Source of the DNA: Candidatus Nomurabacteria bacterium
Lineage (GTDB): Bacteria > Patescibacteriota > Minisyncoccia > Phycocordibacterales > UBA9973
DNA: 64,000 nucleotides
Assembly: GCA_026395955.1 (NCBI GenBank)
Contig: JAPLXR010000007.1
Location: 65,957 to 129,956, forward strand
Direction of reading: 5' to 3'
Shown here: positions 13,095 to 59,790 of the stretch, one piece after another
Position numbering within the stretch: position 1 is the stretch's first letter
Layout: every line of letters starts with the position of its first letter
Made by a program: the position numbers and the translations under genes
The notes under the pieces: model-generated
Database searches by the model: none
Seen by the model: the letters and a program-made list of their open reading frames with translations, nothing else
What the model was told of the DNA's origin: nothing

Positions 13095-13262
13095 AGTTTT
13101 GTAATTGGGGAAGTGAGGTGAGAATCCTCCACAGTGCCGCTACGGTAATCTAAATTTAATTTAGAAAGTCCGAATGCCAATTATGAATTTTGATACCCGA
13201 GCAGGAATTCCATATTTCATTTTTGAAACATGGTACGGTAACTCCTCTCTGTGGGAGTTTTT
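13095..13262 (+). promoter_or_regulatory. cobalamin (AdoCbl) riboswitch with terminator/SD-sequestering expression platform
   Basis: Core GGGGAAGTGAGGTGAGAATCCTCCACAGTGCCGCTACGGTAAT matches the conserved cobalamin riboswitch core (AGGGAAG..GGTGAGAATCC..C.GCC..GCTAC.GT.A). Hairpin actcc-tctctgt-gggagt plus T-run lies immediately before the start codon at 13266. Confidence 0.7.
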
Positions 13263-24822: not shown

Positions 24823-25338
24823 TTGTATACTTTGCATATGTCAGACACAGATAAACTATCGCATAAAAGACCATCTTGGGACGAATACTTTTTAGAAATA
24901 ATGGACACAGTAGCCAAGAGAGCTAGCTGTGATAGGGGACGCTCTGGTTGTGTAATTGTCAAAGATAATAGAATCCTCGCTACTGGTTATGTCGGTGCTC
25001 CGGCTGGAGTAAAAAGCTGTGATGATGCAGGGCATGAAATGCATACAGTGATACATGCTGATGGTACACAATCACAGCATTGTATTCGTACAGCTCATGC
25101 TGAACAGAATGCTATCGTGCATGCTGCTCGTACTGGTGTAGCACTTTTAGGTGGAACATTGTACTGCAATATGACTCCTTGTTATGCTTGTGCGAAAATG
25201 ATTATTAATTCTGGAATTGTCAGAGTCGTTGCAAAGAAAGATTATCATGCAGGAGAAAGATCAAAAGAAATTTTCAAAGAAGCTGGAGTTAAATATGAAC
25301 TTATAAATAACGAAGTCGAAACATATACTAATCAATAA
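24823..25338 (+). CDS. dCMP deaminase (cytidine/deoxycytidylate deaminase family, ComEB-like)
   Basis: Zinc-binding HAEQNA and PCYACA motifs. N-terminal SWDEYFLEIMDTVAKRASC is typical of dCMP deaminases. Confidence 0.75.
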   Translation: MYTLHMSDTDKLSHKRPSWDEYFLEIMDTVAKRASCDRGRSGCVIVKDNRILATGYVGAPAGVKSCDDAGHEMHTVIHADGTQSQHCIRTAHAEQNAIVHAARTGVALLGGTLYCNMTPCYACAKMIINSGIVRVVAKKDYHAGERSKEIFKEAGVKYELINNEVETYTNQ

Positions 25339-25347
25339 ATAAATTTT

Positions 25348-25680
25348 ATGTCTGTTGATCTAAAAGAATTACAAAAAGAGGTGATGAGGAACAAGATTGA
25401 AAAAGGTTTCAACACTACTGATGTAGCATTGGAATTTTGTCGAGCTCACGAAGAACTCTCAGAAGCTTTTTCAAAGTTTAATAAAAATCAAGACGGCGTA
25501 GCAGAAGAATTCGCTGATGTTGCTGTATTTCTCCTCGGTATGTGTGAGATACTTGGTTTTGATTTGGAAAAAGAATTGGTTCGTAAAATTGAAATAAATA
25601 AAAATCGTAAATATAAAAAAGCTAAATCTCCAGACGGTAAAGATATTTTCATAAGAGAGAAAACAGACATAGATCCATAA
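25348..25680 (+). CDS. MazG-like nucleotide pyrophosphohydrolase domain protein
   Basis: 110 aa, all-alpha. EELSEAF....EEFADVAVFLLGMCEILGFDLE matches the MazG-type NTP-PPase core (E..E / E..D metal ligands). Confidence 0.55.
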   Translation: MSVDLKELQKEVMRNKIEKGFNTTDVALEFCRAHEELSEAFSKFNKNQDGVAEEFADVAVFLLGMCEILGFDLEKELVRKIEINKNRKYKKAKSPDGKDIFIREKTDIDP

Positions 25681-25713: not shown

Positions 25714-26211
25714 TTAAAATTTTTCGTATTCTACAAATGAATACGGTTTCTCATTCCTTTCGTCAGCATCGTATCGTTCACGATTTGTTTCTCCAAAAAC
25801 TATTGGAATAATTTCCGGGAAAAATGCATCAGCATCTTTGTCTATTGCTTCTACATGAGTGATATATAGCTTGTCAGCAATTTTCATCGCTTCTCTGTAT
25901 ATTTGTTCACCACCAGTAATAAAAGCTTCTGTTGCTGTTTCATCTTGTCTAACTAGAGCGAGAGCTTCTTCGAGTGAATGAACCACTTCGATGTCTGGAG
26001 CTGTATAGTCTGCATTACGAGTAATTACGATATTTCGTCTTTTTGGTAATGCTTTACCTAAAGATTCAAAAGTCTTGCGACCCATGATTATTGGATGCCC
26101 TGAAGTAGTTTCTTGGAAATGTTTCAGGTCGGTCTTTAAACGCCATAGCAATTTATTATTTTTGCCGAGTTCGTTATTTTCACCTATAACTGCAATGATA
26201 GATATTTTCAT
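25714..26211 (-). CDS. folA: dihydrofolate reductase
   Basis: ISIIAVIGENNELGKNNKLLWRLKTDLKHFQETTSGHPIIMGRKTFESLG is the DHFR signature. Confidence 0.8.
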   Translation of the reverse strand: MKISIIAVIGENNELGKNNKLLWRLKTDLKHFQETTSGHPIIMGRKTFESLGKALPKRRNIVITRNADYTAPDIEVVHSLEEALALVRQDETATEAFITGGEQIYREAMKIADKLYITHVEAIDKDADAFFPEIIPIVFGETNRERYDADERNEKPYSFVEYEKF

Positions 26212-26214
26212 AAT

Positions 26215-27168
26215 TTATACGGCTATTGGTGCTTTAATCATCGGATGAGGGTCATATCCAATAAGCTCAAAATCTTCAAAGACAAAATCTTCTATATTTT
26301 TTACTTCAGGATTTATTTTCATTGTCGGCATACTACGAATATCATTTTTACGTGAAATCTGAAGGTTCGCTTGTTCAAGGTGGTTTAAATATAAGTGTGT
26401 ATCTCCACCAGTCCAAATAAATTCTCCGAGTTCAAGTCCAGTGACTTGTGCCATCATCATAGTAAGCAATGCATACGAAGCAATGTTGTAGGGTACACCT
26501 AAAAAGGTGTCACAACTTCTTTGATATAACAGACAAGATAATTTATTGTCAGCTACATAAAACTGGAATATACAATGACATGGTGGAAGACCACTTACAG
26601 CCATTGCATCTAAGTCAGCAACATTCCATGCAGATACTATCATTCTTCGAGAATCAGGTTGTTTTTTTAATTGTTCAATGACAATTTTGATTTGATCGAT
26701 ATGTCCACCATTTGGTGTTGGCCAGTTCCTCCATTGGTAACCATAGATTGGTCCAAGGTCTCCATTTTCTTTTGCAAAAACTGGATCAGTTTTTATTTTT
26801 TCTACATATTCTTTCAATCCAGTTTTCCATTCATCACTTTCTGTCTTTGGTACAGGGATACCATTTTTCTTCAAATATGCTTTGTATGGCCATTCGTCCC
26901 AAATACCTACACCGTTATCAGCTAGATATTTTAAGTTTGTATCACCACGTAAGAACCAAATCAATTCATGAATGATTCCTTTCATGTGTACTTTTTTTGT
27001 TGTTAGGAGAGGGAAGCCATTTGCTAGATCGAATCGCATTTGATATCCGAAGACACTTTTTGTGCCTGTTCCTGTACGATCAGTTTTTGTCGCACCACTT
27101 TGTAAGATATGTTCCAATAATTTTAAATACTGGTTATCTACATGATTGTTGTTTTCCATATTTTCCAT
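26215..27168 (-). CDS. thyA: thymidylate synthase (ThyA, folate-dependent)
   Basis: [18 protein letters not shown], the [10 protein letters not shown] motif and the catalytic Cys region ([11 protein letters not shown]). 317 aa. Confidence 0.9.
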
Positions 27169-29588: not shown

Positions 29589-29616
29589 AAAGCCCCAAAT
29601 GGGGCTTTTTTGTTTT
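29589..29616 (+). terminator. rho-independent terminator
   Basis: Hairpin aaagccccaaatggggcttt followed by a T-run. Confidence 0.7.
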
Positions 29617-29642
29617 ATAAAAATATAGGGTATACTTTAGTC

Positions 29643-30815
29643 ATGAAAGATAAACAAATTGAGAAACTTATAAAATTAGAAGGTAAAAGACAAAAAAGTG
29701 TTATTAATTTAATCGCCTCAGAAAATTATGTTTCCAAAGATGTTTTGGAGGCTCTCGGTTCTGTACTTACAAATAAATATGCCGAAGGGTATCCAGGACG
29801 AAGATACTATGGAGGAAATGAAATTATAGATAAAGTAGAAACTCTCGCTATTACTCGCGCACTCAAACTTTTCAAATTAAAATCAGACGCATGGCATGTG
29901 AATGTTCAGCTTCTTTCTGGAAGTCCTGCGAACTTCGCATTGTACTCTGCTCTCGTACCGATCGGTGGAAAAATAATGGGAATGAAATTAACTTCTGGTG
30001 GACATCTCACACACGGACATCCACTTTCTATGACAGGTAAACTTTGGAAACCAATTCAATTCGAACTCGATCCAAAAACAGAAGTCATCGATTATGATGC
30101 AATTAAAAAATTAGCAATACAAGAAAAGCCAGATATTATCGTCGCTGGTTTTACCGCATATCCACGCGTTGTTGATTTTAAAAAGTTTCGAAATATTGCT
30201 GATAAATGCGGAGCATTATTACATATCGACATGTCACATTTTGCAGGACTCGTAGCAGGGGGAGCGTACCCATCTCCATTTCCATATGCAGACAGTGTTA
30301 TGACTACTACTCACAAATCTCTCCGTGGTCCGAGACAAGCAATTCTTTTTGTAAAAAAAGATGAACGTAGTTTTGATAAAAAATTAGACAAGATGGTAAT
30401 ACCTGGACTCTTTGGTGGTCCACATGAAAATAATATTGCCGGAGTTGCGATCGCACTAAAAGAAGCCGACACTCCAGCTTTTAAAAAATACGCAAAACAA
30501 GTTGTAAAAAATGCACAAACACTAGCAAAAGAATTACAACGCCTAGGATGGAAAATAGTTTCTGGTGGTACTGATTCACACTTGATATTGATGGATACTT
30601 TTTCTTCAAATGGTGTGACAGGTAGTGATGCTAGTAAAAAGCTTGAAAAAGCAGGGATAATAGTAAATATGAATACTGTACCAGGAGACACACGTTCTGT
30701 TATGGATCCTTCTGGTATTCGACTCGGCACTTGTGCAGAAACGACGATTGGGAAAAAGGAAAAAGATATGATTAAAATAGCACAGAAGATGAATAAAGTT
30801 TTGAGAGGGAAATAA
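29643..30815 (+). CDS. glyA: serine hydroxymethyltransferase
   Basis: NLIASENYVS, the PLP-lysine region TTTHKSLRGPR and the overall SHMT pattern. Start set at MKDKQ (29643) because the tracked start overlaps the upstream terminator. Confidence 0.85.
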   Translation: MKDKQIEKLIKLEGKRQKSVINLIASENYVSKDVLEALGSVLTNKYAEGYPGRRYYGGNEIIDKVETLAITRALKLFKLKSDAWHVNVQLLSGSPANFALYSALVPIGGKIMGMKLTSGGHLTHGHPLSMTGKLWKPIQFELDPKTEVIDYDAIKKLAIQEKPDIIVAGFTAYPRVVDFKKFRNIADKCGALLHIDMSHFAGLVAGGAYPSPFPYADSVMTTTHKSLRGPRQAILFVKKDERSFDKKLDKMVIPGLFGGPHENNIAGVAIALKEADTPAFKKYAKQVVKNAQTLAKELQRLGWKIVSGGTDSHLILMDTFSSNGVTGSDASKKLEKAGIIVNMNTVPGDTRSVMDPSGIRLGTCAETTIGKKEKDMIKIAQKMNKVLRGK

Positions 30816-30818
30816 TTT

Positions 30819-31688
30819 ATGAAAATTCCAACAAAAAAATTAAATACTGGATTTGAAATGCCTGTATATGGGCTTGGTACTTGGCAAATGGGTGGAAGAG
30901 AAAATCATGATCTTGCAAATGATGATGACAAAGATATTCAAGGGATCAAAGATTCTATTGCTAATGGTATAACCCATATAGATACAGCAGAAAAGTATGC
31001 AGATGGATATACAGAAATTATAGTTGGTAAAGCAATAAAAGAATTTGATCGTTCTAAGATATTTTTAGTTTCAAAAGTAAGAAAAGAAAATTTAAAATAT
31101 AATGATGTTATTAACGCTTGCAAGAAAAGTTTAGAAAGATTGCAAACTGATTATTTGGATCTTTATTTAATTCATTTTCGTAACCTTGGAATTTCTTTAA
31201 AAGAAACAATGCATGCTATGGATTCTTTAAAAGAAAGTGGTTTGATAAAAAATATTGGGGTTTGTAATTTTACCAAAGAAAGTTTAGCTGAAGCACAAAG
31301 TTATACAAAAAATAAAATTGTTTGTAATCAGGTTCATTACAATTTAATATTTCGAGAACCTGAAAGGAAAGGGCTTGTTGAATATTGTCAAAATAATGAT
31401 GTATTTCTAAGTGCTTGGCGACCAATTCAGAAAGGAGACTTATTAGAAAATATTCCCCCGATTCTTTCTGATATGTGTGATAAGTATAAGAAAACTCCAG
31501 CACAGATTGCTATTAATTGGCTTATTTCTCAACCCTATGTAATCACAATATCAAAGACTAATAATCATGAACACCTTGAAGATAATTTAGGTACATTAGG
31601 TTGGGAAATGCAAAAAGAAGATATAGAAAAACTGAGAAATGAATTTCCAAATCAAAAAGATATTTCAGATGCTGTTCCATTGGGGTAA
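30819..31688 (+). CDS. aldo/keto reductase family oxidoreductase
   Basis: GLGTWQMGG...HIDTAEKY...LDLYLIHF AKR signature motifs. Confidence 0.75.
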   Translation: MKIPTKKLNTGFEMPVYGLGTWQMGGRENHDLANDDDKDIQGIKDSIANGITHIDTAEKYADGYTEIIVGKAIKEFDRSKIFLVSKVRKENLKYNDVINACKKSLERLQTDYLDLYLIHFRNLGISLKETMHAMDSLKESGLIKNIGVCNFTKESLAEAQSYTKNKIVCNQVHYNLIFREPERKGLVEYCQNNDVFLSAWRPIQKGDLLENIPPILSDMCDKYKKTPAQIAINWLISQPYVITISKTNNHEHLEDNLGTLGWEMQKEDIEKLRNEFPNQKDISDAVPLG

Positions 31689-31697
31689 AAATATTTT

Positions 31698-32108
31698 ATG
31701 ACTAAAGATAGGAAAGAACAAAAAACTCATCTCGCTATCTGTACTGAACCATTTTTGTCACTGATGTTGAATGGTAAGAAAAAGGTTGAATCAAGATTTT
31801 CAAAAAATAAAATAGCACCGTATGAAAAAGTTTCAAAAGGCGATTCAGTTTTACTGAAACGTTCAGGTGGTGGAATAGAAGGTTTTTTCGTTGTACAGAA
31901 AGTTTTATTTACTGAAATTAAAAATAAAAAAGATTTAGATAGATTGAAAAAGGAGTACTCTAAGCTTATTTGCTCAGATATAGATTCAAAATTTTGGCAA
32001 AAGAGAATTATCGCAAAATATGCTACATTTATATGGATAGGGAAAGTTTCTATTAAAAAACAAATTATAAAAACAACAGGACGTAGTGGTTGGAGAATTT
32101 TAAAATAA
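31698..32108 (+). CDS. ASCH/PUA-like domain protein (hypothetical)
   Basis: 136 aa. A small beta-barrel-like pattern resembling ASCH domains. Weak call. Confidence 0.3.
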   Translation: MTKDRKEQKTHLAICTEPFLSLMLNGKKKVESRFSKNKIAPYEKVSKGDSVLLKRSGGGIEGFFVVQKVLFTEIKNKKDLDRLKKEYSKLICSDIDSKFWQKRIIAKYATFIWIGKVSIKKQIIKTTGRSGWRILK

Positions 32109-32112
32109 ATTT

Positions 32113-32523
32113 ATGAAGATATTTATCTGCACAAGTAAACATTTATATAGTCAGATTCCTCCTATAAAAGAATCTCTTAAAAAAAGTGGTCACATCATAA
32201 CTCTACCAAATAGTTATGATAACCCTTTGAAAGAGCAAGAAATGAAAAATGTAGGAATTGCAGAACATTCAAAATGGAAAGGAGAGATGCTTCGACTTCA
32301 AAAAGAAAAAGTTAATATGAATGATGCAATTTTAGTTTTAAATTTTGAAAAGAATGGACAGGCGAATTATATTGGAGGAGCTACATTTTTAGAAATTTAC
32401 ATGGCTTTTGAATTAGGTAAAAAGATATTTTTGTATAATCCAATTCCAGAAAGCTTTTTAAAAGATGAATTATTAGGAATGAATCCTCTTATTATTAATG
32501 GTGATTTAGGATTGATTGTTTGA
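32113..32523 (+). CDS. hypothetical protein, possibly nucleoside 2-deoxyribosyltransferase-like (flavodoxin-like) fold
   Basis: 136 aa. GGATFLEIYMAFELGKKIFLYNP loosely resembles the NDT/DNPH1 superfamily. Context within the deoxynucleotide gene block. Confidence 0.25.
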   Translation: MKIFICTSKHLYSQIPPIKESLKKSGHIITLPNSYDNPLKEQEMKNVGIAEHSKWKGEMLRLQKEKVNMNDAILVLNFEKNGQANYIGGATFLEIYMAFELGKKIFLYNPIPESFLKDELLGMNPLIINGDLGLIV

Positions 32524-32569
32524 TGTTATTATGGTATTTTAATAAAAACAATCTTTAAAATAAATAGTT

Positions 32570-33574
32570 ATGAAAAAAGGAATATTAGTTACAATAATGG
32601 GTATTAATAATGTGGGTAAGACGACTCAAATGAATCTTCTTGAAAAGATGTTTATTGAAAAAGGTTTGAAATTTCAACCTTTAAAATACCCAATCTATAA
32701 ACTAGAACCAACCGGTCCAAGAATTTTTGCTTGTTTAAAAGAAGGAAATCCTGAAGGATTAACTCCAATAGTTTTACAAACTTTATGTGCTGAAAATAGA
32801 AAAGATTTTGAACAACAAATGCAGGAACTACTGTTAGAAAATGATGTTGTTGTCGCTGAAATGTATACTGGTACAGGTATTGCTTACGGTATGTGTGAAG
32901 GTGTGTCAAAAGAATATCTGCTTGAAGCAAATGAAGGAATTTTAGTGCCAGATGTTTCGATTTTACTTGATGGTAAACGTTTTTTAGAAAGTGTAGAAGC
33001 AGGACATCGTTTTGAAAATGATGATGTAAAGTCAGAATTTGCTCGTCAGGTACACTTAGAACTTGCGAAAGATTTGAATTGGAAAGTTATAGATGCAAAC
33101 CAAACTATTGAAGAAGTTCACCAGCAAATATGGAATGAGATTTCTAAACACTTATTTCCTCATCCCAAAATATATTTTGCAGGATCAATACGCGGTGGAA
33201 GAGATGATAAAGATATTTATGCTGAAATTATTTCTTTACTAAAAAAATACGGTCCAGTACTAAGTGAACATATTGGTGATAAAAATCTTTCAAGTCAGGG
33301 TCAAACGTCAATGACGAATAAAGAGATTTATCAAAAAGATGTTAATTGGATTAATGAATCTGATATTATCATTGCTGAAGTTACTAATCCATCACTTGGT
33401 GTTGGATATGAATTAGGACTTGCTGAATCTCTTAAAAAGAAAATTATTGCCTTATACAGAGTAGTAGACGGTAAAAGACTTTCTGCAATGGTGGCAGGAA
33501 ACAGTAATATTACTTGCATAGAATACACCGAAGTTTCTGAATTAGATAAAATATTTGAAGAAATGTTTAAATAA
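32570..33574 (+). CDS. fusion protein: N-terminal dTMP-kinase-like P-loop kinase + C-terminal DNPH1/Rcl-like (2'-deoxynucleoside 5'-phosphate N-hydrolase / nucleoside 2-deoxyribosyltransferase superfamily) domain
   Basis: N-terminal part: P-loop IMGINNVGKTTQ, YTGTGIAYG and PDVSILLDGKRF, as in thymidylate kinase. C-terminal part (from about 33150): KIYFAGSIRGGRDD...DIIIAEVTNPSLGVGYELGLAES matches the DNPH1/Rcl motif. Confidence 0.55.
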   Translation: MKKGILVTIMGINNVGKTTQMNLLEKMFIEKGLKFQPLKYPIYKLEPTGPRIFACLKEGNPEGLTPIVLQTLCAENRKDFEQQMQELLLENDVVVAEMYTGTGIAYGMCEGVSKEYLLEANEGILVPDVSILLDGKRFLESVEAGHRFENDDVKSEFARQVHLELAKDLNWKVIDANQTIEEVHQQIWNEISKHLFPHPKIYFAGSIRGGRDDKDIYAEIISLLKKYGPVLSEHIGDKNLSSQGQTSMTNKEIYQKDVNWINESDIIIAEVTNPSLGVGYELGLAESLKKKIIALYRVVDGKRLSAMVAGNSNITCIEYTEVSELDKIFEEMFK

Positions 33575-33594
33575 TTTTTTGTTACGTAACAAAA

Positions 33595-33624
33595 AACCCG
33601 AGCTATCTCGGGTTTTTATTTTTC
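33595..33624 (+). terminator. rho-independent terminator
   Basis: Hairpin aaacccgagctatctcgggttt followed by a T-run. Preceded by the 22-nt palindrome ttttttgttacgtaacaaaaaa. Confidence 0.7.
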
Positions 33625-33647: not shown

Positions 33648-34070
33648 ATGCAGTTTAAGATTAAAAAATTGAAAGAAGGTGCGAAATTACCTAGTTATGC
33701 AAACCCGGGGGATGTTGGTATGGATTTGTATTCTATGGAAAATGTTACTTTGGCTCCTATGGAACATGCTATTTTAAATCATGGTTTTGCTTTAGAATTC
33801 CCTGAAGGATACGGAGGTTTTGTTATGGACAAGGGAAGTATTTCAAAAGCAGGGCTCAAAGTCATGGGTGGGGTATATGATGCAGGATATAGAGGCGAAT
33901 ACAATACACATCTGGTTAATTTGTCTGATAAATCATATACTATCGAAGTAGAAGATAAAGTTTCTCAACTAGTTATCACTCCTGTCGTGATAGGCGAGAT
34001 AGAGGAGGTGAATGAACTTTCAGAGTCTGTTCGCGGAGAGGGTAGATATGGTTCAACTGGTAGAAAATAA
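33648..34070 (+). CDS. dut: dUTP diphosphatase
   Basis: MQFKIKKLKEGAKLPSYANPGDVGMDLYS and GYRGEYNTHLVNLSDK dUTPase motifs. Start moved downstream of the terminator. Confidence 0.8.
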   Translation: MQFKIKKLKEGAKLPSYANPGDVGMDLYSMENVTLAPMEHAILNHGFALEFPEGYGGFVMDKGSISKAGLKVMGGVYDAGYRGEYNTHLVNLSDKSYTIEVEDKVSQLVITPVVIGEIEEVNELSESVRGEGRYGSTGRK

Positions 34071-34133: not shown

Positions 34134-35839
34134 ATGAAACAAAAAATAATAAATTTAATAAAAGATGCTTTGAATAAACTCGAAATAGGTGAGGTGAATT
34201 TTGTCGTGGAACATCCAGAAGATTTCAAGAATGGAGACTATTCTACGAACGTAGCGATGGTTTGTGCGAAGCAATTGAAAATGAATCCACGTGAACTTGC
34301 AGAAAAAATTTCTGCAGAAATTATGAAGCACCCCCTCCGGCTTTCAGTCACCTCCCCCTTAGCTAAGGGGGAGGGCTGGGGTGGGGGTGTTGAAAAAATA
34401 GAAGTCGCCGGCGCAGGGTTTATAAATTTCTATATTTCAAAAGAATATTTTCAAAAAGAATTAGCAAATATAATAACTTTAGCTGATAAATACGGATCCT
34501 CAGATTTAAATAAAGGAAAGAAAATTTTAGTTGAACATTCTAGTCCGAATTTATTTAAGCCATTTCACGTCGGGCATATGATGAATAATGCTATCGGTGA
34601 ATCTATTACTCGACTCGCACATTTTTCTGGTGCGGAAGTAAAAGCTATTTCTTTCCCGTCTGATATTTCTCTCGGAGTAGCTAAAGCAATTTTTATAATT
34701 TTAGAAAAACAAATTGATGGTCAAGTTTTTAAACCAGTAGACATCGTTGTATTAGGTGATGCTTATGTAGAAGGAACGAAGAGATACGATGACGATGAAT
34801 CTAAAAAGACTCTCCAGAATTCAGCGCTTTTGTCGCTTGTAAAGAATTCAATATGGAATATTTTAAAAATATTACAAAACGTCTCGGTTCAGAATTTGAT
34901 GGATATATTTACGAGAGTGAGGCTGGTATCATAGGTAAAAAAATGGTTTTAGAAAATACTCCTGCTATTTTTACCGAGAGTGAAGGCGCCGTCGTTTATA
35001 TTCCAGAAGAAACAAAAAAATACATAAATACTGCAGTGTTTATAAATAGCCAAGGCAACCCAACCTATGAAGCTAAAGATTTAGGTTTACTCGATTTGAA
35101 ATTTGAAAAATATAATCCTGACCTTTCTATTTTTATTACAGACCATCAACAGATCTCTCATTTCGCTGTCGTTCTCGATGCCGTAGAAAAAATAAATAAA
35201 AGCTGGGTAGAGAGAAGTATTCACCGAACACATGGACGTATGACATTCAAGGGACAAAAGATGTCTTCACGTCTCGGGGGAGTTCCACTCGTTGCTGATA
35301 TTTTAGAGACAGTCCTTGCTGAAGTTTTTGAACGCACAAAAAATAGAGATACTGTCGATACACGTGAGAATCCAGAAGCTATCGCCGTCGGCGCTCTCAA
35401 GTTCGCTATCCTCCGTGCTCAAGCAGGAAAAAATATCGACTTTGATCCAGAGACTTCACTTTCTTTCGAAGGGGATTCAGGTCCATATTTACAATACACT
35501 GGTGTCCGTGCAAATTCTGTTTTGGAAAAAGCTGGAAAAATTTCTGCAGAAATTTTTCCAGCAACAACTTTCTCAGACACACCAACCACTGATGTAGAAA
35601 AAATACTTGCTCGTTTCCCAGAAGTCGTTGAAAATTCTATCAATAACTGGGCTCCACATTATGTAACGACATATCTATGTGAATTGGCTCAATCATTCAA
35701 TAGCTGGTATGCACATACTCAAATTATCGATGAAGCTAATCCAAATATGAATTACAATTTAGCTATCACTAAATCAGTTGCCCAAGTAATGCAAAACGGC
35801 TTGTACCTCCTCGGTATTACTCTCCCAGAACGTATGTAA
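34134..35839 (+). pseudogene. argS: arginyl-tRNA synthetase, interrupted by an apparent frameshift near 34840-34856 (ORFs 34134..34934 and 34853..35839)
   Basis: ORF1 has the ArgRS N-terminal domain and HIGH region (PNLFKPFHVGH). ORF2 continues in the +2 frame with the ArgRS catalytic and DALR anticodon-binding parts. Alignment with the E. coli ArgRS segment KRYDEDEE...ITYDRLNV places the frame switch in an A-rich tract (gtaaagaattcaatatgg). ORF1 also carries an in-frame insertion of a GC-rich palindromic element (34328-34376). Confidence 0.6.
34328..34376. repeat. GC-rich palindromic mini-element copy 1 (inside argS CDS, in frame)
   Basis: gcaccccctccggctttcagtcacctcccccttagctaagggggagggc. 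Contains the perfect 24-nt palindrome cctcccccttagc/gctaagggggagg. A related copy lies at 46395-46434. Confidence 0.6.
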
Positions 35840-35903: not shown

Positions 35904-38900
35904 GTGTTTTATAATTTATATATGGGGTATGCAATAAAACGATTTCGTTTGTTGTTTATTTTTTTAACTATTTTTGTTTGCAGTTTTTATTTTTCACATC
36001 CAGTTTTTGCTTCTACAAATGTGACTGATGATATTAGTGAAAACATTACATGGAATATAGTAGGTAGCCCCTATGTCGTGCAGAACGACATTTTTATTTT
36101 TTCTGGAGCGACACTCACTATCGAGCCAGGGGTTATTGTAAAATTTGCGAATCACTCTTCATTGAATGTCGCTGGAAATATTATCGCGAATGGTACAGTT
36201 AATAATCAAATAATATTTACTTCTATTAACGACGATTCTGTCGGAGGTGATACTAATGAAGACTTAGACATGACTATTCCACAGGCTAGTGATTGGAGTG
36301 GTTTTTATTTTATTGATTCACAGAACTCTTCTTTTACTAATGTTGATTTCAGGTATGCAGCAAATATTTTCACGACTGATAATTCAGCTATTACTTTTCA
36401 GGATATAGATATGTTTATGAGTGATGCAGGAATTGTTGCTTTTGATAGTAGTCATATTACTGTCGACAATATGACAGCGCAAAATATCCGGACTGATGTA
36501 CTAGTAGCAGGGGAGCAAAGTACTATTAATGCAAATCATGTAGAAATGCAAAATATTACTCAGTATACTGTTACAGCTTTGAATGGTAGTACTATTTCTC
36601 TAGATAATTCTAGTATTAAAGATATTTCACAATTGAATGCTATCTCTATTTTGAATGACAGTATTTTTACTGCAGATCATTTAGATGTAGAGAATTTTGA
36701 AGATTATAATTCTGATATGGTGGACGTTTTTAATCATAGTAATGTGTTGTTGGACCATTCAACTTTTAAAAATTGTCCTGGTGGAGCTTGTATCACTTTT
36801 TATGATGTTGGGAATTATATTAATACTCCTTCGAGTATCACTGTCTCGCATACATTATTTGACGGAGGTATGGGTTCTGCCTTTATGAGTTTCGGTACGA
36901 GTGCAATCGTTACGAACATTTCAAATAATACGATAAAGAATTTCGACTATTTAGGAATAGAGGATTACAATACGACGACGATACATGCGGAAAATAATTA
37001 CTGGGGTGATGCGTCGGGTCCGTACAATGAGACTCAAAATCCAAATGGACTCGGCAGTGGCGTGACGGACAATGTCGATTTCATACCTTTCCTTACGACA
37101 GACCCGCTCATCGTCCGCACACCGGTTATACTCATCCCGGGGATTATGGGCTCGTATTTGGATAGGAATTTCGGTGATGATGGCGAAGTGTGGATCAATA
37201 TCAATCACATGATCACTTCTATCTCGGATGATTTTTTAAATGATTTAGCACTCCGACCAGACGGCACCGAGGACCCAGCCAAGCCTATACAAGTGGGCGA
37301 CATTATTCGCACGATTACGGCAAATGTTTTGGGCACGACACATGTGACGCATAGTTTCGATGGACTCATCGACGAGCTGGAAAGTGGTGGCTATACTGAA
37401 GGCACGGACCTTTTTGTGTTTCCATATGATTGGAGAAAAAATGACAAAGATGCAACGATTTTGCTCGACAGCAAAATCGTTGCCGTCCTCGCCCAGACCG
37501 GCGCCTCCAAAGTCGACATCGTCGCGCACAGCATGGGCGGACTCGTGGCCAAAGAATACATCGCCCAAAACGGTGCCGAGAAAATCGACAAGCTCATCTT
37601 CCTCGGCACGCCACACCTTGGCGCACCGAAAGCTTATAAAGTTTTAACTTACGGAGATGATATGGGAATAAATATTTTGTTTCATAGTATTCCTTTGTTA
37701 AACGCGAATAGAGTAAAATTTATTTCACAAAATATGCCAGGGGTTTTTGAGCTTTTACCGAGCCAGAAATATATTACAGACTTTGGACCCTATGTGACAA
37801 ATGCAAAAATTAATCATGTACAAGATTTGGATTATACGAGTACGAAAGACTTTATGAATACACAAGGTCGCAATACTGCTATTTTTACACCAGCTGAGAG
37901 TGTGCATAATGATATAGATAATTTAAATTTGTTAGGAACAGATGTGTATAATTTTGCTGGTTGTGGCAAGACGAAAACAATAGGAAAAATACGAGTGGGG
38001 AAGAAGAGAGATTGGACACACCTCGGCCTCACTTGGAAAGACGATGTGAGTATTACTTATACAAATGGGGATGAGACAGTGCCACTATCTTCGGCTACTA
38101 GTGTCGATGCTTTCAATACATACTTTGTAAAAAATATTTCCCATATGGATCTGCCTTCTGCTGATGGGTTGAAGCAAGACGTCCTCGCTATTTTATCTGG
38201 CTCTGCATTACCTAGCTCACCAGTTATTTTGTCGGATGAAGCTGACTGTACGACTTCAGGGCACACTGTGTCTGTGCATAGTCCGGCAACTCTCGATATT
38301 TATGATAGCTTAGGGAATCACACAGGATTGAATGCTGATGGTGATATTGAATACGGTATCCCTGCAGTGAGTTACGATATTTTTGATGATGTGAAATATG
38401 CATTCCTACCAGATGGCCAAGATTATAAAATAGTGAATCATGCTACTGACACAGGAGGATATAGTTTAGCCATAGATGATGTAGCGAGTAATGACGAAGT
38501 CACAAATACTTTTTCTTGGAACCTCGTACCATTTCAGACTTTGAATACAAGTGCAGAGATAAATATCGGTCCTAGTTTTCCTGAAAATGAATATGTATTA
38601 AAAGCCGATGAAAATGGTGATGGAACTTTCGAGAAAAATTTCCCTGTGAATTTCGATGGTACGAGCCTAGCCGAAAAGGCAGAAGAAAAACCGCATCATT
38701 CTAGCGGTGGCAGTATTCTGGTAATTCTCGACAGGAAAGATGATAATAAAAAAGAAGAAACAGAAGTTAAAAATATTCCTGAATTAGAAATGTCGGACCT
38801 TGAGAATTTGGATATTAAAGGTCCAACCTTGAAGAGTTCTGTATTTAAAAGGTCGTTCCTTAAAGGTACCCAAGGTGCGACCTTAAAGCATTTGAGTCCT

Positions 38901-39017
38901 GATCCTGTATCTCAAACAGCTTCCGCTATAAATTCAGACTTCAATATCAAGAATATACTCACAATCCTTTCTGTTTGCATTTTAGCTTTTATTATAGGAA
39001 GAAAATTGTTAAAATAG
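35904..39017 (+). CDS. large secreted, C-terminally membrane-anchored protein: N-terminal right-handed parallel beta-helix repeats + central GC-rich alpha/beta-hydrolase (lipase/PGAP1/LCAT-like, AHSMGG nucleophile elbow) domain
   Basis: 1037 aa. Signal/TM at the N-terminus, repeated beta-helix-like segments (NxxGxI/V pattern). The lipase-like serine motif IVAHSMGGLVAKEY is encoded in a markedly GC-rich stretch (about 36950-37650). C-terminal TM (ILTILSVCILAFIIG). Confidence 0.55.
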   Translation: MFYNLYMGYAIKRFRLLFIFLTIFVCSFYFSHPVFASTNVTDDISENITWNIVGSPYVVQNDIFIFSGATLTIEPGVIVKFANHSSLNVAGNIIANGTVNNQIIFTSINDDSVGGDTNEDLDMTIPQASDWSGFYFIDSQNSSFTNVDFRYAANIFTTDNSAITFQDIDMFMSDAGIVAFDSSHITVDNMTAQNIRTDVLVAGEQSTINANHVEMQNITQYTVTALNGSTISLDNSSIKDISQLNAISILNDSIFTADHLDVENFEDYNSDMVDVFNHSNVLLDHSTFKNCPGGACITFYDVGNYINTPSSITVSHTLFDGGMGSAFMSFGTSAIVTNISNNTIKNFDYLGIEDYNTTTIHAENNYWGDASGPYNETQNPNGLGSGVTDNVDFIPFLTTDPLIVRTPVILIPGIMGSYLDRNFGDDGEVWININHMITSISDDFLNDLALRPDGTEDPAKPIQVGDIIRTITANVLGTTHVTHSFDGLIDELESGGYTEGTDLFVFPYDWRKNDKDATILLDSKIVAVLAQTGASKVDIVAHSMGGLVAKEYIAQNGAEKIDKLIFLGTPHLGAPKAYKVLTYGDDMGINILFHSIPLLNANRVKFISQNMPGVFELLPSQKYITDFGPYVTNAKINHVQDLDYTSTKDFMNTQGRNTAIFTPAESVHNDIDNLNLLGTDVYNFAGCGKTKTIGKIRVGKKRDWTHLGLTWKDDVSITYTNGDETVPLSSATSVDAFNTYFVKNISHMDLPSADGLKQDVLAILSGSALPSSPVILSDEADCTTSGHTVSVHSPATLDIYDSLGNHTGLNADGDIEYGIPAVSYDIFDDVKYAFLPDGQDYKIVNHATDTGGYSLAIDDVASNDEVTNTFSWNLVPFQTLNTSAEINIGPSFPENEYVLKADENGDGTFEKNFPVNFDGTSLAEKAEEKPHHSSGGSILVILDRKDDNKKEETEVKNIPELEMSDLENLDIKGPTLKSSVFKRSFLKGTQGATLKHLSPDPVSQTASAINSDFNIKNILTILSVCILAFIIGRKLLK

Positions 39018-39093: not shown

Positions 39094-39429
39094 ATGATTA
39101 ATTGGATTCAAAAAACTTTTCATACAGATAAATGGTGGGGGAAGGCTATTTTTATGCTTTTAACTTACACTATTTATTGGTGTGTGTTTTATGGAAGTTT
39201 GTCTTTAATTTCTGAAGACGCATTTGTAGGCAATGATTATGCTGGTATTATTTTGATTTCCTACGTATTTATTTTTGTTCCAGTTGTTAGTTTTTTATTA
39301 ATGAATTCTATAAAAAAATTTATAAATATTAGACACCCATATTTATTAAATATAGTATTTTTAATACTCTCTTTAGTTTTGTTTTTTTACATTGATTTAA
39401 TAAAATCAATGCCTCACTGGCTTAGTTAA
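39094..39429 (+). CDS. small membrane protein (hypothetical)
   Basis: 111 aa with three predicted TM segments. Confidence 0.3.
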   Translation: MINWIQKTFHTDKWWGKAIFMLLTYTIYWCVFYGSLSLISEDAFVGNDYAGIILISYVFIFVPVVSFLLMNSIKKFINIRHPYLLNIVFLILSLVLFFYIDLIKSMPHWLS

Positions 39430-39432
39430 ACA

Positions 39433-39714
39433 ATGAAAAAGAATTTTAATATACAGGCGAAGGTGTGGCGATGGCCAGGGGATGGGGGCTGGCATTTTGT
39501 GAATCTCGATCAAAAAGTCTCTAAATAAATTCGAGATGTGTATACTCGTGGTTTTGTAAAAGTATCTGCCATTATCGGACGCACGTCTTGGGATGCGTCA
39601 CTCTTGCCGAGTAAAAGGGACGCCAGCTATCTGCTCTGTGTCAAAAAACTCGTCCGCCAAAAAGAAGGAATTTTTGACGGCGATATGGTTAAAATTAAAT
39701 TTAAGATAAAGTAG
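39433..39714 (+). pseudogene. GC-rich DUF1905-like small protein gene interrupted by a single in-frame TAA (39526-39528)
   Basis: Not in the ORF track. Same-frame translation MKKNFNIQAKVWRWPGDGGWHFVNLDQKVSK*IRDVYTRGFVKVSAIIGRTSWDASLLPSKRDASYLLCVKKLVRQKEGIFDGDMVKIKFKIK. The W.WPG.GGW.FV.L...TSW..SL.P...G.YLLP.K motifs resemble the DUF1905 family. Composition is much more GC-rich than its flanks. Confidence 0.4.
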
Positions 39715-39819: not shown

Positions 39820-40983
39820 ATGAAATTAAAAGATACAGTTGATACAATTAAAATTTTTCCAAGTCATCCATTTCAAGACAAACTTTTTGAAGTTCTTGAA
39901 AGTGAAAGATTTAATTATGATATTGTTGCAGAAAAAATAAAAGAAACTTATTTATATACTCCACAACTAAAAGAAAATCGTTTTCAATTACAAAATAGAA
40001 GATATATAGGTTCAAAACATAAACTTATAGAATGGATCTTTTCTGTTATTAATAAAGAATGTAGAGGGACTTCTTTTGCTGATATTTTTGCTGGTACTGG
40101 AATTGTTTCTGCTATTGCAGCTAAGCATTTTGAAAAAATAACTATTAATGATTTTTTATACTCAAACTACGTAACTTATCAAGCCTTTTTTAGTAATAAT
40201 GATTGGGATTCTAATAAGATAGAAGGACTGATTAATTATTACAATAATATTGATGTTTTAAATTTGAAAGAAAATTACTTTTCTAAAAATTTTGGTGGAA
40301 AGTATTTTAGTCAAAAATCAGCAAAAATAATAGGATTTATAAGAGATAATATTGAAGAAATTAAGAAAACTCTTACAGATAGAGAATATTATATTTTACT
40401 TTCATCCTTACTTTATTCAATAGATAAGATTGCTAATACAGTTGGGCACTATGATGCATACTTTAAAAAAGATTCGTTGGAAGATAGGTTTATTTTAAAA
40501 TTAATAGACCCAATTAAGGTTGCTGATATTTCTATCTTTAAAGAAGATGCTAATATTCTAGTAAAGAAAATTAAAACAGATATTGCTTATATAGATCCAC
40601 CATATAATTCTAGACAATATAGTAGATTTTATCATGTTTTAGAAACTTTGATTAAATGGGATAAACCACTTTTGCATGGTGTTGCATTAAAACCTGAACC
40701 AGAAAATATGAGTGATTACTGTCGTGTGAGTGCAAGAGAAAAATTTGCAGAATTAATAAAAGACATAGATGCAAAGTATTTAGTTGTTTCCTATAATAAT
40801 ACTTATGATTCAAAAAGTCATTCTTCTCAAAATAAGATTAATTTACAAGAAATAAAAGATATTTTAAACCAAAAAGGTAAGACTAAAGTTTTTGAAAAAG
40901 ATTATAGACATTTTAATGCTGGTAATACAGATTTTAATAATCACAAAGAATATCTTTTTGTTACTGAAGTAAATCATGTCTAA
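39820..40983 (+). CDS. N6-adenine DNA methyltransferase, D12 (Dam) class
   Basis: YIGSKHKL (Dam YxGxK motif), FADIFAGTG (FxGxG SAM-binding) and DPPY catalytic motif. Confidence 0.7.
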   Translation: MKLKDTVDTIKIFPSHPFQDKLFEVLESERFNYDIVAEKIKETYLYTPQLKENRFQLQNRRYIGSKHKLIEWIFSVINKECRGTSFADIFAGTGIVSAIAAKHFEKITINDFLYSNYVTYQAFFSNNDWDSNKIEGLINYYNNIDVLNLKENYFSKNFGGKYFSQKSAKIIGFIRDNIEEIKKTLTDREYYILLSSLLYSIDKIANTVGHYDAYFKKDSLEDRFILKLIDPIKVADISIFKEDANILVKKIKTDIAYIDPPYNSRQYSRFYHVLETLIKWDKPLLHGVALKPEPENMSDYCRVSAREKFAELIKDIDAKYLVVSYNNTYDSKSHSSQNKINLQEIKDILNQKGKTKVFEKDYRHFNAGNTDFNNHKEYLFVTEVNHV

Positions 40984-59783: not shown

Positions 59784-59790
59784 AATTTGC

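Follow-up and report, generated by a model that had tools for sequence, protein, structure and literature searches.

What would a bacterium do with a single polypeptide that joins a kinase of the thymidylate kinase (Tmk) family to a domain predicted to cleave deoxynucleoside monophosphates (dNMPs)? This question is raised by an open reading frame (ORF) at positions 32570..33574 of the forward strand in a 64,000-nucleotide stretch of Candidatus Nomurabacteria DNA, the whole of which is referred to here as the window. The ORF opens with an ATG and encodes 334 amino acids followed by a stop, exactly as an earlier reading of the letters alone (the sequence-only reading) had placed it, with the kinase as its N-terminal half and a DNPH1-like domain as its C-terminal half. 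The motifs quoted in that reading (GINNVGKTTQ, YTGTGIAYG, PDVSILLDGKRF, YFAGSIRGGR and DIIIAEV...GVGYELG) are all found in the translation. Its domain assignments and gene context were borne out by profile, structure-database and fold searches, with PF02223 matching the N-terminal half and PF05014 the C-terminal half, both above the Pfam gathering scores. An AF2 model of the whole protein, for which an alignment of fusions and kinase-only sequences (A4) served as the folding input, has a pLDDT of 90.8 and a pTM of 0.78. The protein is identical to the NCBI entry P0001, 'MAG: nucleoside 2-deoxyribosyltransferase [Candidatus Nomurabacteria bacterium]'; this public annotation omits the kinase half entirely.

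A short-type kinase joined to a DNPH1-type domain

The kinase domain spans residues 1-195 (about 1-197; 32570..33154, forward strand), as delineated by matches to PF02223 and to Tmk structures in PDB and Foldseek searches. The Pfam model Thymidylate_kin aligns with residues 11-187 over profile positions 3-185 of 185 (68.3 bits against a cut-off of 27, E 9e-19), the PDB sequence matches include the human, Plasmodium and yeast thymidylate kinases (E 6e-12 to 1e-10), and the top 26 Foldseek hits in the PDB are thymidylate kinases throughout, with TM-scores of 0.79-0.86 (target) and an rmsd of ~2 A. With the Tmk proteins of human (1e2d), P. falciparum (2wwf) and yeast (3tmk) it shares the fold, the P-loop, the length and the counterparts of the human residues R76 (R77) and Y98 (Y99). 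The P-loop, G11-I-N-N-V-G16-K17-T18-T19 (32600..32626, forward strand), aligns to G13...G18-K19-S20 of human TMPK, and the family alignment A4 has no variation at its G11, G16 and K17 and hardly any at T19. However, relative to the human enzyme, the P-loop residues D15 and R16 are replaced by N13 and N14, R45 is replaced by Y43, and in place of the canonical D-R-Y motif (human D96-R97-Y98) there is E97-M98-Y99 (32858..32866, forward strand), in which the arginine is missing. The arginine of the Tmk D-R-[YHF] motif bridges the phosphates of the donor and the acceptor.

We noted that short-type kinases are typified by E-[M/D]-Y at this site, whereas the long-type Tmk proteins of relatives carry (D/N)-R-Y. 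The short kinases of Patescibacteria form a group with conserved motifs of their own, namely K39-Y-P-x-Y43, T-G-P, D-G-x-R137-F and H146-x-x-E149, and the close relatives of the kinase half are stand-alone proteins of 196-200 amino acids, with 75-79% nucleotide identity to the stand-alone genes at four related loci (L001, L099, L100 and L101). Judged by these sequence features, the N-terminal half is a divergent short subtype of the thymidylate kinase family, and the locus flags this subtype as one without the canonical DRY arginine. Given that it misses the cut-off of the NCBIfam dTMP-kinase equivalog TIGR00041 (56.2 bits against 83.25), and has neither the DRY arginine nor the P-loop aspartate (N13 in its place), the substrate of the kinase could differ from dTMP.

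The C-terminal half, residues 200-334 (33167..33571, forward strand), is delineated by PF05014 and PDB matches as a predicted 2'-deoxynucleoside 5'-phosphate N-glycosidase domain of the DNPH1/Rcl type. PF05014 (Nuc_deoxyrib_tr) matches residues 201-297 with 68.7 bits (cut-off 28.8, E 6e-19), all 12 of the 12 PDB sequence matches are DNPH1/Rcl chains (rat Rcl and human DNPH1, E 6e-33 to 1.5e-30), and Foldseek comparison of this half of the AF2 model with DNPH1 structures gave TM-scores of 0.81-0.87 at 38-41% identity. It aligns end to end with mammalian DNPH1/Rcl (PDB 8qhq, 4fyh and 2khz), from which the same chemistry would be expected. It differs from the mammalian protein in its position C-terminal to a kinase, to which it is fused through a five-residue linker, and in having no counterpart of the disordered N- and C-terminal tails. 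The residue roles were taken from work on human DNPH1, in which Tyr24, Asp80 and Glu104 form the catalytic triad, Glu55 is proposed to activate water for hydrolysis, His56 contacts the pyrimidine O2, Ser98 and, from the partner subunit, Ser128' bind the 5'-phosphate, and D73 positions R30 for base recognition (PMC10603095).

Eleven of 12 functional positions are identical between the window domain and human DNPH1. The catalytic glutamate, which the sequence-only reading had singled out for inspection, is present as E281 (33410-33412; human E104), and with it are found the two other predicted catalytic residues, Y202 (33173-33175; human Y24) and D257 (33338-33340; human D80), all encoded on the forward strand. 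The further identical pairs, window residue first, are E233/E55, H234/H56, S275/S98, S305/S128, R208/R30, I207/I29 and I253/I76. Human D73 is replaced by N250, with R208, the equivalent of its partner in the R30-D73 salt bridge of base recognition, being kept. The catalytic positions do not vary among 30 Patescibacteria homologues, of which at least 90% also conserve S305 and R208; the lid-helix pair E233-H234 is invariant in the DNPH1 family alignment, and both phosphate-binding serines, S275 within NPSLG and S305 within RLSAM, are conserved. The domain shares 97% amino acid identity with the stand-alone 136-residue protein P0269. Close orthologues of DNPH1 that retain the full set of catalytic residues thus occur in prokaryotes.

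The nucleoside 2-deoxyribosyltransferases (NDTs), which act on nucleosides, and the CMP and hmCMP N-glycosidases MilB and BcmB share their superfamily fold and Glu nucleophile with the DNPH1 domain of the window. The substrates of MilB and BcmB are ribonucleotides, and the counterparts of Y24 and H56 in these two enzymes are Phe and Glu, respectively (PMC10603095). We rejected the deoxyribosyltransferase name given at NCBI, as NDT chains are absent from the PDB sequence matches of the C-terminal half, which also carries the phosphate-binding serines that set nucleotide hydrolases apart from nucleoside transferases; given that NDT, MilB and BcmB are all missing from its sequence matches, that name is imprecise for the DNPH1 half.

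The kinship with transferases nevertheless raises the possibility that the domain would act mainly as a phosphodeoxyribosyltransferase, moving deoxyribose-5-phosphate from any dNMP to thymine (or another base) and supplying the fused kinase with the dTMP so formed. Such channelling of a product would be favoured by fusion, and a precedent is offered by the phage enzyme DmtZ, which hydrolyses dAMP and also transfers its deoxyribose-5-phosphate to another base, and whose gene adjoins, or is fused with, that of a dUTPase-like enzyme (PMC12884076); furthermore, the hydrolases and transferases of the superfamily share the covalent Glu intermediate (PMC10603095, PMC12884076). If this were true, the protein would provide a ThyA-independent route within a single polypeptide, by which a scavenger could rebalance its dNTP pools from foreign DNA. 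However, we regard it as unlikely. The C-terminal half is far nearer to the mammalian DNPH1 hydrolase than to any transferase (E 1e-32, with DNPH1/Rcl chains as its only matches) and retains the equivalent of E55, the residue proposed for water activation (PMC10603095), and the gene cluster already has a full route to dTMP through ThyA, DHFR and SHMT. The DmtZ-DutZ pair likewise places a DNPH1-fold dNMP glycosidase beside, or in fusion with, an enzyme acting on the same pool (PMC12884076), but its partner is dUTPase-like and not a kinase, its substrate is dAMP, it is viral and not cellular, and it has no close sequence relationship to the window protein.

Origin and integrity of the junction

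In the assembled sequence the two halves share one frame, as the sequence-only reading had them, and the junction contains neither a stop nor a leftover start codon. A hidden frameshift separating the halves was ruled out: stops interrupt the other two frames, and the DNPH1 half lacks a separate ATG. The linker, F196-P-H-P-K200 (33155..33169, forward strand), consists of five residues and falls between the last kinase helix, which ends at residue 195 in the AF2 model, and the first strand of the DNPH1 domain, which starts at 201. Its bases 33157-33166 align to neither parental arrangement. Homology to the four stand-alone short tmk genes mentioned above ends at 33147-33156, and that to the stand-alone DNPH1 gene of a related locus (L009) begins at 33167, which corresponds to codon 2 of that gene, with its ATG replaced by CCC; the gap between the two homology limits is 10-20 nt.

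In close relatives the layout is tmk, a stop, one base, the ATG of a 136-residue DNPH1 and then dut, with TAA-T-ATG between tmk and DNPH1 in L009 and L010. The window is colinear with L009 at 82-94% nucleotide identity, except that the kinase half stands in place of a 229-residue tmk product. The kinase half occupies the slot of the long-type tmk of L009 and L010, so that it sits where relatives have their tmk, and no other Tmk is encoded within the 64-kb window. Stand-alone short tmk genes have dut next downstream. The origin of the fusion follows from these comparisons. In related genomes tmk and DNPH1 are adjacent and translationally coupled. In the lineage of the window a short-type tmk took the place of the resident long-type gene; the ~6 terminal codons and the stop of this incoming gene were lost, and 10 nt of junction DNA now connect it, in frame, with codon 2 of DNPH1.

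Given that the protein comes from a single population, the join might be a chimeric assembly of co-occurring strains, or a recent lesion that inactivates one or both of the genes. On the same contig the essential argS gene carries a frameshifting deletion of 43 nt, and the contig is strongly mosaic with respect to relatives, its identity to L009 ranging from <70% to 100% in 100-nt windows; on account of both features the quality of the contig sequence is not beyond doubt. An identical ORF, with its junction reproduced exactly by a second assembler, is found on a Logan contig from SRR20698640, which possibly derives from the same reads. A chimera of the de Bruijn type requires a k-mer common to both sources at the join, but the bases 33157-33166 are in neither parental arrangement. 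Strong purifying selection acts on the DNPH1 half: in comparison with L009 this half has a dN/dS of 0.038 at a dS of 0.33, and those of its changes that can be polarised to the branch of the window comprise 8 synonymous and 0 non-synonymous ones. A dN/dS of 0.04, an in-frame join, 334 codons free of stops and a full set of intact catalytic residues are not what a dying gene would display, and other fusions (see below) show that the architecture is viable. We therefore consider an artefact or a decaying gene to be very unlikely.

Genomic context and recurrence of the pairing

The fused gene sits in a canonical thymidylate cluster, and the dCMP deaminase, MazG-like, DHFR, ThyA, SHMT and dUTPase neighbours named in the sequence-only reading were all confirmed. 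The upstream part of the cluster comprises genes for an NT5C-like HAD protein (24165-24779), the dCMP deaminase (24823-25338) and the MazG-like protein (25348-25680) on the forward strand, followed on the reverse strand by those for DHFR (25714-26211) and ThyA (26215-27168; TIGR03284, 451 bits against a 108-bit cut-off). The serine hydroxymethyltransferase (SHMT) gene (29610..30815, forward strand) forms the left edge of a variable SHMT-to-dut cassette and lies in a region colinear with L009, L001 and L101. Downstream, an intrinsic-terminator-like hairpin with an 11-bp stem that includes 5 G-C pairs, followed by a T-run (33592..33617, forward strand), is found 18 nt past the stop of the fusion, and beyond it lies the conserved neighbour dUTPase (33648..34070, forward strand; PF00692, 80.9 bits; TIGR00576 and NF001862 above cut-off).

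Directly upstream of the fusion is a gene for a conserved protein of 136 residues (32113..32523, forward strand), which had been described as a second NDT-like small protein. This description holds for its fold: the AF2 model (pLDDT 96.9) has NDTs, YtoQ, BcmB/MilB and DNPH1 as its best PDB fold matches, with TM-scores of 0.5-0.66. It does not extend to the sequence, as the protein has no Pfam or NCBIfam match, and hhalign profile-profile comparison of its family with the DNPH1 family revealed no significant similarity (probability 1.3%). The protein has more than 2000 homologues at 65-81% identity and an invariant E94, and its gene shares 94% nucleotide identity with the L009 gene found upstream of tmk.

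The presence of certain of these genes could also suggest a phage-like DNA hypermodification system or an anti-phage system acting by nucleotide depletion. The zinc-binding core of the dCMP deaminase has a weak similarity to anti-phage dCTP deaminases, phages often carry MazG-like genes, and the DNPH1-like DmtZ operates in Z-genome phages (PMC12884076). However, the locus lies between NusG/L11 and argS, a conserved chromosomal context, and is not a phage or hypermodification locus; ThyA and Dut pass canonical equivalog cut-offs, with DHFR adjacent. A role in hydroxymethylation or hypermodification was rejected on the grounds that ThyA scores above three thymidylate-synthase equivalog cut-offs and adjoins DHFR. 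The link to phage hypermodification clusters raised by the sequence-only reading did not materialise: a tblastn search of 50,697 phage records (E 1e-5) returned no match to the DNPH1 half or to the fusion, the only match in these records being a distant Tmk in the Planktothrix phage PaV-LD, and just 2 of 2.9 million IMG/VR contigs encode a DNPH1-like relative, neither of them next to a Tmk. PADLOC returned nothing for the fusion, the small ORF, an ASCH-like ORF or the MazG-like ORF, with only the zinc-binding core of the deaminase matching a dCTP deaminase model, and a defence system was rejected on this outcome. This reading is largely refuted, and we hold it to be extremely improbable.

Only one population is known to carry the exact fusion. 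Searches of JGI metagenomes yielded 0 matches to the junction peptide FPHPKIYFAG and 0 confirmed full-length relatives of the fusion, no kinase fusion was found among the best 80 species-representative GTDB DNPH1 loci, and literature searches combining DNPH1 or NDT with thymidylate kinase, fusion or CPR returned no description of it. As neighbouring genes, Tmk and DNPH1 are common in Patescibacteria. At 21 of the same 80 best loci a tmk lies no more than 4 kb away; at 9 of these the two genes directly adjoin, with one or the other first, and 3 more have the arrangement Tmk-dut-DNPH1. Both short and long kinase types occur beside DNPH1, and the adjacency is kept despite shuffled gene order. The pairing, which had been called unusual, is thus so as a fusion and not as a pair of neighbouring genes.

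As to related genomes, where a look for the fusion had been suggested, other Tmk/DNPH1-like fusions do occur in metagenomes, and there are at least 3 such architectures: a long (DRY) Tmk followed by DNPH1 (P0047 and P0058), the reverse order, DNPH1 followed by Tmk (P0095 and P0127), and a short Tmk followed by a diverged DNPH1-like domain (P0124, P0129, P0132 and P0145), the P0124 group being devoid of the GSIRGG and LSAM phosphate motifs. P0047 and P0095 are found in clusters of the type L11...deaminase/ThyX...dUTPase/SHMT. These proteins join the same two families in one polypeptide and, where the context is known, in the same type of cluster, but the window protein is set apart from them by its combination of a short kinase with a bona fide DNPH1 domain. 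Their overall identity to it of 30-41% suggests that they arose as independent events. Other fusion partners are dUTPase, DHFR and MazG for the short kinase, and NUDIX for DNPH1-like domains.

Given its restriction to one population, the lack of matches in JGI metagenomes and of kinase fusions among the best 80 GTDB loci, the fusion itself may be selectively neutral. One could accordingly picture both domains as active, with DNPH1 in a broad scavenging role in which surplus, mainly purine, dNMPs of degraded foreign DNA would yield bases to be salvaged and deoxyribose-5-phosphate as an energy source, and with the physical link being a functionally inconsequential accident of recombination between co-transcribed genes. 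The fusion is rare and the genes are separate in most genomes, the junction, with its 10 nt of filler, resembles an illegitimate join, the cassette from SHMT to dut is variable and mosaic, and the DNPH1-like genes of Bacteroidota, Marinimicrobia, Dehalococcoidia and archaea showed no Tmk linkage. Moreover, DNPH1 takes other dNMPs as slow substrates (PMC10483697), and Patescibacteria rely on scavenged nucleotides (PMC12455944). However, if no functional link existed, one would hardly expect fusions to have arisen independently in either order and with two kinase types. The adjacency persists while gene order shuffles, and the residues with which human DNPH1 recognises the pyrimidine base and the hydroxymethyl/phosphate geometry (H56, S98 and S128') are conserved. 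We view a neutral fusion as possible, if somewhat doubtful.

A candidate sanitising enzyme of thymidylate metabolism

The reading that we favour, with moderate confidence, is that the fused ORF is a genuine gene of this member of Candidatus Nomurabacteria (Patescibacteria), described as a tiny groundwater-type bacterium, and that it encodes a bifunctional enzyme of thymidylate metabolism whose DNPH1 domain, by analogy with human DNPH1, would clear dNMPs resembling 5-hydroxymethyl-dUMP (hmdUMP) ahead of the kinase. The N-terminal domain is predicted to be the thymidylate kinase of the organism, converting dTMP and ATP to dTDP. As a DNPH1 orthologue, the C-terminal domain would break the N-glycosidic bond in aberrant dNMPs by way of a covalent Glu281-deoxyribose-5-phosphate intermediate, its main substrates probably being hmdUMP, the source of which is hypothetical, and similar look-alikes of thymidylate. 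Both activities would compete for one class of substrates, and hydrolysis would remove the look-alikes as monophosphates, before the kinase could send them to the triphosphate pool and DNA. We infer both enzymatic activities, their substrates and any benefit of the physical fusion.

The human enzymes DNPH1 and DTYMK combine the same two activities as those predicted here; the human proteins are separate and unlinked, whereas in the window they form one polypeptide, and in its relatives they are products of neighbouring genes. In human cells the step from hydroxymethyl-deoxycytidine to hmdUMP is catalysed by DCTD, a dCMP deaminase, and the window cluster likewise has a dCMP deaminase. Human hmdUMP derives from hydroxymethyl-deoxycytidine, and its destruction by DNPH1 stops its phosphorylation via thymidylate kinase, so that the kinase-dependent cascade cannot deliver hmdUTP to DNA (PMC10603095). 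The sequence-only reading had proposed a sanitising step for modified deoxynucleotides, and this removal of hmdUMP by human DNPH1 (PMC10603095) lends support to such a step, which, as predicted here, is our best explanation of the locus.

DNPH1 has recently been recognised as the human enzyme that keeps hmdUMP from thymidylate kinase, and is now a cancer drug target; to our knowledge its role outside animals is essentially unexplored. The repeated placement of Tmk beside DNPH1 in Patescibacteria, together with several independent fusions, provides evidence of the 'Rosetta stone' kind for an ancient and general partnership, and suggests that the one between kinase and sanitiser in human cells is itself ancient. 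As a compact natural protein with two predicted functions, the fusion would allow phosphorylation and destruction of thymidylate look-alikes to be measured directly against each other. Patescibacteria are devoid of known nucleotide biosynthesis pathways and may take nucleotides from exogenous DNA, including that of viruses (PMC12455944). The locus hints at a means by which bacteria subsisting on scavenged DNA, perhaps including phage DNA with modified bases, may keep their dNTP pools clean.

Domain architecture and active sites of the fused protein

The fusion gene (32570..33574, forward strand) is a single reading frame of 334 codons with an ATG start, and its translation contains every motif listed in the sequence-only reading. 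The proposal there of a kinase joined to an NDT-superfamily domain was borne out by Pfam searches, in which both halves exceeded the cut-offs: Thymidylate_kin (PF02223) at residues 11-187 with 68.3 bits (cut-off 27) and Nuc_deoxyrib_tr (PF05014) at residues 201-297 with 68.7 bits (cut-off 28.8). In a sequence search against every solved structure, the C-terminal half matched solely DNPH1/Rcl chains (E 6e-33 to 1.5e-30), while the matches of the N-terminal half were thymidylate kinases (Tmk) from human, Plasmodium, yeast, Thermotoga and others (E 6e-12 and weaker). An AlphaFold2 model computed from an input alignment of 39 sequences had a mean pLDDT of 90.8 and a pTM of 0.78. Its N domain resembled Tmk structures (TM 0.79-0.86, rmsd ~2 Å) and its C domain DNPH1 structures (TM 0.81-0.87), and no single PDB chain covered both domains in a fold search with this model. 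Between the final kinase helix, which stops at residue 195, and the opening DNPH1 strand, which starts at 201, the linker consists of F-P-H-P-K only. The exact protein is present at NCBI, from a Candidatus Nomurabacteria MAG (159-kb contig), under the name nucleoside deoxyribosyltransferase.

The active site of the DNPH1 half is intact when compared with the functional residues of the human enzyme (PMC10603095). The human catalytic triad Y24/D80/E104 corresponds to Y202/D257/E281, the last being the catalytic glutamate whose presence the sequence-only reading had wished to see established; the lid pair E55-H56 to E233-H234; the phosphate ligands S98 and S128' to S275 and S305; the base-recognition arginine R30 to R208; and the base-sandwiching I29 and I76 to I207 and I253. 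All testable defining features of DNPH1 are thus present, with the exception of the salt-bridge partner of R30 (human D73), which is N250 here. Across 30 aligned Patescibacteria homologues no catalytic position varies, and S305 and R208 hardly do. Given this conservation, the C-terminal half is predicted to be a bona fide DNPH1-type nucleotide N-glycosidase, for which the NCBI label would be wrong.

Alignment of the kinase half with human Tmk revealed the P-loop G11...G16-K17-T18 as well as R77 and Y99 (human R76 and Y98). The canonical D-R-Y of Tmk is replaced by E97-M98-Y99, D15-R16 by N13-N14, and R45 by Y43. Patescibacteria proteins of 196-200 aa form a coherent family (the short type) that includes this domain and is typified in our alignment by K-Y-P-x-Y, T-G-P, A-E-[M/D]-Y-x-G-T-G, D-G-x-R-F and H-x-x-E. 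By Pfam and fold it is a Tmk family member, but on two stricter measures it departs from Tmk: the DRY arginine is absent, and its score of 56 bits lies under the NCBIfam dTMP-kinase equivalog cut-off of 83. Hence we term it a divergent Tmk-family kinase in the tmk slot, as distinct from a proven dTMP kinase. Throughout the short family (window 32570-33154; P0002-P0120) the P-loop Asp is N or T, yet these genes occupy the tmk slot, and their products would have to bind the acceptor phosphate without the DRY arginine. Elsewhere, short kinases are fused to dUTPase in both orders (P0102, P0136, P0137, P0173), to DHFR (P0153) and to MazG (P0130).

Origin and integrity of the junction

The C-terminal half has its nearest relative in P0269, a free-standing protein of 136 aa (97% identical) from another Nomurabacteria MAG (locus L009). 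In L009 and the related locus L010, tmk is followed by its stop, one base, the DNPH1 ATG, dUTPase and an intact ArgRS gene; their tmk encodes a 229-aa long-type kinase with N/D-R-Y, and the TAA-T-ATG arrangement predicts translational coupling of the two genes. The window is colinear with L009 at 82-94% nucleotide identity except for 32517-33166, comprising the kinase half and its upstream spacer, where L009 has no counterpart and carries its long tmk. Homology restarts at 33167, codon 2 of DNPH1, with CCC in place of the ATG. Identity to L009 is strongly mosaic (DNPH1 92-96%, dut 97-99%, 5' part of argS 100%). The kinase half is closest to stand-alone genes lying between SHMT and dUTPase without DNPH1 (L001, L099, L100), and likewise L101, which has one extra ORF in that interval; identity to these relatives (P0002, P0003 and P0005) is 69-76% for protein and 75-79% for DNA. 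Homology to the stand-alone short tmk genes ends at 33147-33156, 13-22 nt before their stop codons, and homology to their loci restarts 3' of the fusion's stop. These two sets of breakpoints show that a short-type tmk shed its last ~6 codons and stop and was joined to a DNPH1 gene without its start codon, the 10 nt in between (33157-33166) being unalignable. The fusion is a recombination product of one lineage.

It is very improbable that the fusion is an artefact of assembly or a decaying gene. Such a reading draws on the exact fusion being known from one population only, on the absence of matches to the junction peptide or full-length relatives in JGI metagenome scans, and on the state of argS (34134-35839) on the same contig. 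The latter is broken near 34803 into two overlapping ORFs (266 and 328 aa): compared with L001 and L009, whose argS is intact (583-593 aa), it carries a frameshifting deletion of 43 nt, and at the break itself identity to L009 leaps from 93% to 100%. The break, which bears on contig quality, reflects either misassembly or genuine damage to an essential gene. Against the artefact reading, a 1873-bp contig of the Logan assembly of SRA run SRR20698640, which may share its reads with the MAG, matches the window at 99.9% identity and has an identical fused ORF, both mismatches falling within the dut-argS spacer. The halves, whose placement in different frames would have undone the original proposal, join in frame in both assemblies; the remaining frames contain stops, and the DNPH1 half lacks an ATG of its own. 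Since neither parental arrangement contains the junction bases, the join is unlikely to stem from a chimera in the k-mer graph. Purifying selection is also evident: between the DNPH1 half and L009 there are 23 synonymous and 4 non-synonymous changes (dS 0.33, dN/dS 0.038), of which 8 synonymous and 0 non-synonymous were polarised to the window branch, and the kinase half has a dN/dS of 0.22 against L001.

Recurrence of the pairing and its gene neighbourhood

At least 567 species-representative genomes carry a DNPH1-like gene that is at least 49% identical to the query, among them genomes of Patescibacteria, Bacteroidota (including cultured Labilibaculum), Marinimicrobia, Dehalococcoidia, DPANN archaea and methanogens. 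A Tmk gene lies within 4 kb in 21 of the best 80 loci, all in a Patescibacteria-type SHMT...dut...argS cluster; among these 21, Tmk abuts DNPH1 upstream in 5, follows it abutting or overlapping in 4, and is separated from it by dut (Tmk-dut-DNPH1) in 3. The kinases typed were 18 long and 2 short, one short gene directly abutting DNPH1 (L071). Thus, of the earlier description of the pairing as unusual, the rarity of this particular fusion stands, whereas the pairing itself recurs. A search of a 1.8-billion-representative library and a 5.8-billion-cluster database recovered further fusions: long Tmk with DNPH1 (P0047, P0058), DNPH1 with Tmk (P0095, P0127), and short Tmk with a diverged DNPH1-like domain (P0124, P0129, P0132, P0145, possibly P0123) that keeps the Y/D/E triad and has lost GSIRGG and LSAM. 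Apart from P0123, the last group retains a similar layout; P0047 and P0095 lie in a cluster of the window's kind, comprising L11, dCTP or dCMP deaminase, MazG, ThyX, the fusion, dUTPase, SHMT and FolD. NUDIX, too, occurs joined to DNPH1-like domains in both orders, and the partners of short kinases and DNPH1-like domains are all thymidylate-supply or nucleotide-pool-cleaning enzymes (dUTPase, DHFR, MazG, NUDIX).

A further representative-library set of DNPH1-like proteins (P0223, P0229, P0265, P0122, P0149, P0171, P0205, P0209) shows varied fusions, with NUDIX, a second DNPH1-like domain in tandem, GNAT acetyltransferase, DUF4269 or DUF1801. A NUDIX-DNPH1 protein would be a putative two-step disposal enzyme ((d)NTP to dNMP to base plus dR5P). 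In other genomes, an apparent frameshift divides one DNPH1-like gene into two ORFs (L073 3998-4417), and one locus has two copies within 4 kb (L040 384-788 and 3998-4417). The 184-aa call P0116 (L007 6001-6555) apparently starts inside translated tRNA-like sequence (GSNPALSA), its true start probably being the Met preceding KIYFAGS.

The window represents cellular chromosome of low GC, with tRNA genes scattered along it. The block runs NusG, L11, an NT5C-like HAD, dCMP deaminase, MazG-like, DHFR(-), ThyA(-), DEAD helicase, an unknown ORF, SHMT, aldo-keto reductase, an ASCH-like ORF, a small 136-aa ORF, the fusion, dUTPase and ArgRS, with a strong terminator-like hairpin (33592-33617) 3' of the fusion. 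A phage-like hypermodification or defence function is scarcely credible here, as ThyA and dUTPase score above curated equivalog cut-offs and defence-system models matched nothing in the block beyond a generic deaminase core. In addition, the DNPH1 half and the fusion matched no GenBank phage record, and relatives are encoded on just 2 of 2.9 million IMG/VR contigs, neither of them beside a Tmk gene.

The small ORF (32113-32523) had been taken for a second NDT-like protein. NDTs, YtoQ, BcmB/MilB and DNPH1 are the structures closest to its very confident model (pLDDT 96.9), but the ORF matched no sequence family and its profile similarity to DNPH1 was not significant, so that it is NDT-like in fold only. 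It has more than 2000 homologues (65-81% identity) in Paceibacteria-type genomes, without a Pfam/NCBIfam family, with E94 invariant at the NDT nucleophile position; in other genomes it adjoins a nucleoside diphosphate kinase gene (L094-L096) or unrelated genes (L097). One possibility is a glycosidase, so far uncharacterised, that acts on nucleotides or nucleosides. Relative to L009, the aldo-keto reductase (289 aa) and ASCH-like 136-aa ORF (30819-32108) are an insertion between SHMT and the small ORF; L010 has the same reductase (87% nucleotide identity) between SHMT and dut, among six other genes, and this interval is a variable cassette in the fusion's relatives.

Farther out, a 1037-aa protein (35904-39017) with a right-handed beta-helix region and an LCAT/lipase-type alpha/beta hydrolase domain is kept 3' of argS in L001 and L009. 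Two adjacent D12-class N6-adenine DNA methyltransferases, followed by an AlwI-family restriction endonuclease (39820-43454; GC 0.24-0.27 versus ~0.33), probably form a type IIS-like restriction-modification island gained by horizontal transfer, just upstream of which colinearity with L009 is interrupted (39203-39438). The window also holds an AdoCbl-II (cobalamin) riboswitch aptamer (13090-13187; 45.4 bits versus the Rfam gathering score of 36.5) and a divergent tRNA-Ser pair (59789-60052), one of them assigned the unusual anticodon ACT by ARAGORN and lying 85 nt from tRNA-Ser(GCT).

Predicted function

On balance we favor a bifunctional thymidylate kinase/DNPH1 enzyme, in which the glycosidase would clear modified dNMPs before phosphorylation; both activities, their substrate range and any benefit of covalent linkage are putative. 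Human DNPH1 clears 5-hydroxymethyl-dUMP from the nucleotide pool (PMC10603095); there, it and thymidylate kinase are separate proteins with opposing action on this nucleotide, whereas here they are halves of one polypeptide. Patescibacteria are without known pathways of nucleotide biosynthesis and probably feed on foreign, including viral, DNA (PMC12455944), so modified pyrimidines would likely be present in their dNMP pools, and a kinase-attached glycosidase could clear these at the monophosphate stage. A smaller but appreciable chance attaches to a selectively neutral fusion of neighbors, with DNPH1 as a general dNMP-scavenging hydrolase. Phosphodeoxyribosyl transfer supplying dTMP to the kinase, for which phage DmtZ offers a precedent (PMC12884076), is improbable.

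Neither a Tmk-DNPH1 fusion nor a bacterial Tmk/DNPH1 gene pairing is described in the searchable literature, the nearest precedent being the DmtZ-DutZ pair or fusion (DNPH1-like and dUTPase-like) of Z-genome phages (PMC12884076). The novelty lies in the domain architecture and gene association; the kinds of enzyme are already known, and no new kind of system is involved. Bacterial DNPH1 orthologues, conserved and repeatedly coupled to Tmk, are a useful lead, open to direct testing, on what a current drug target did ancestrally.
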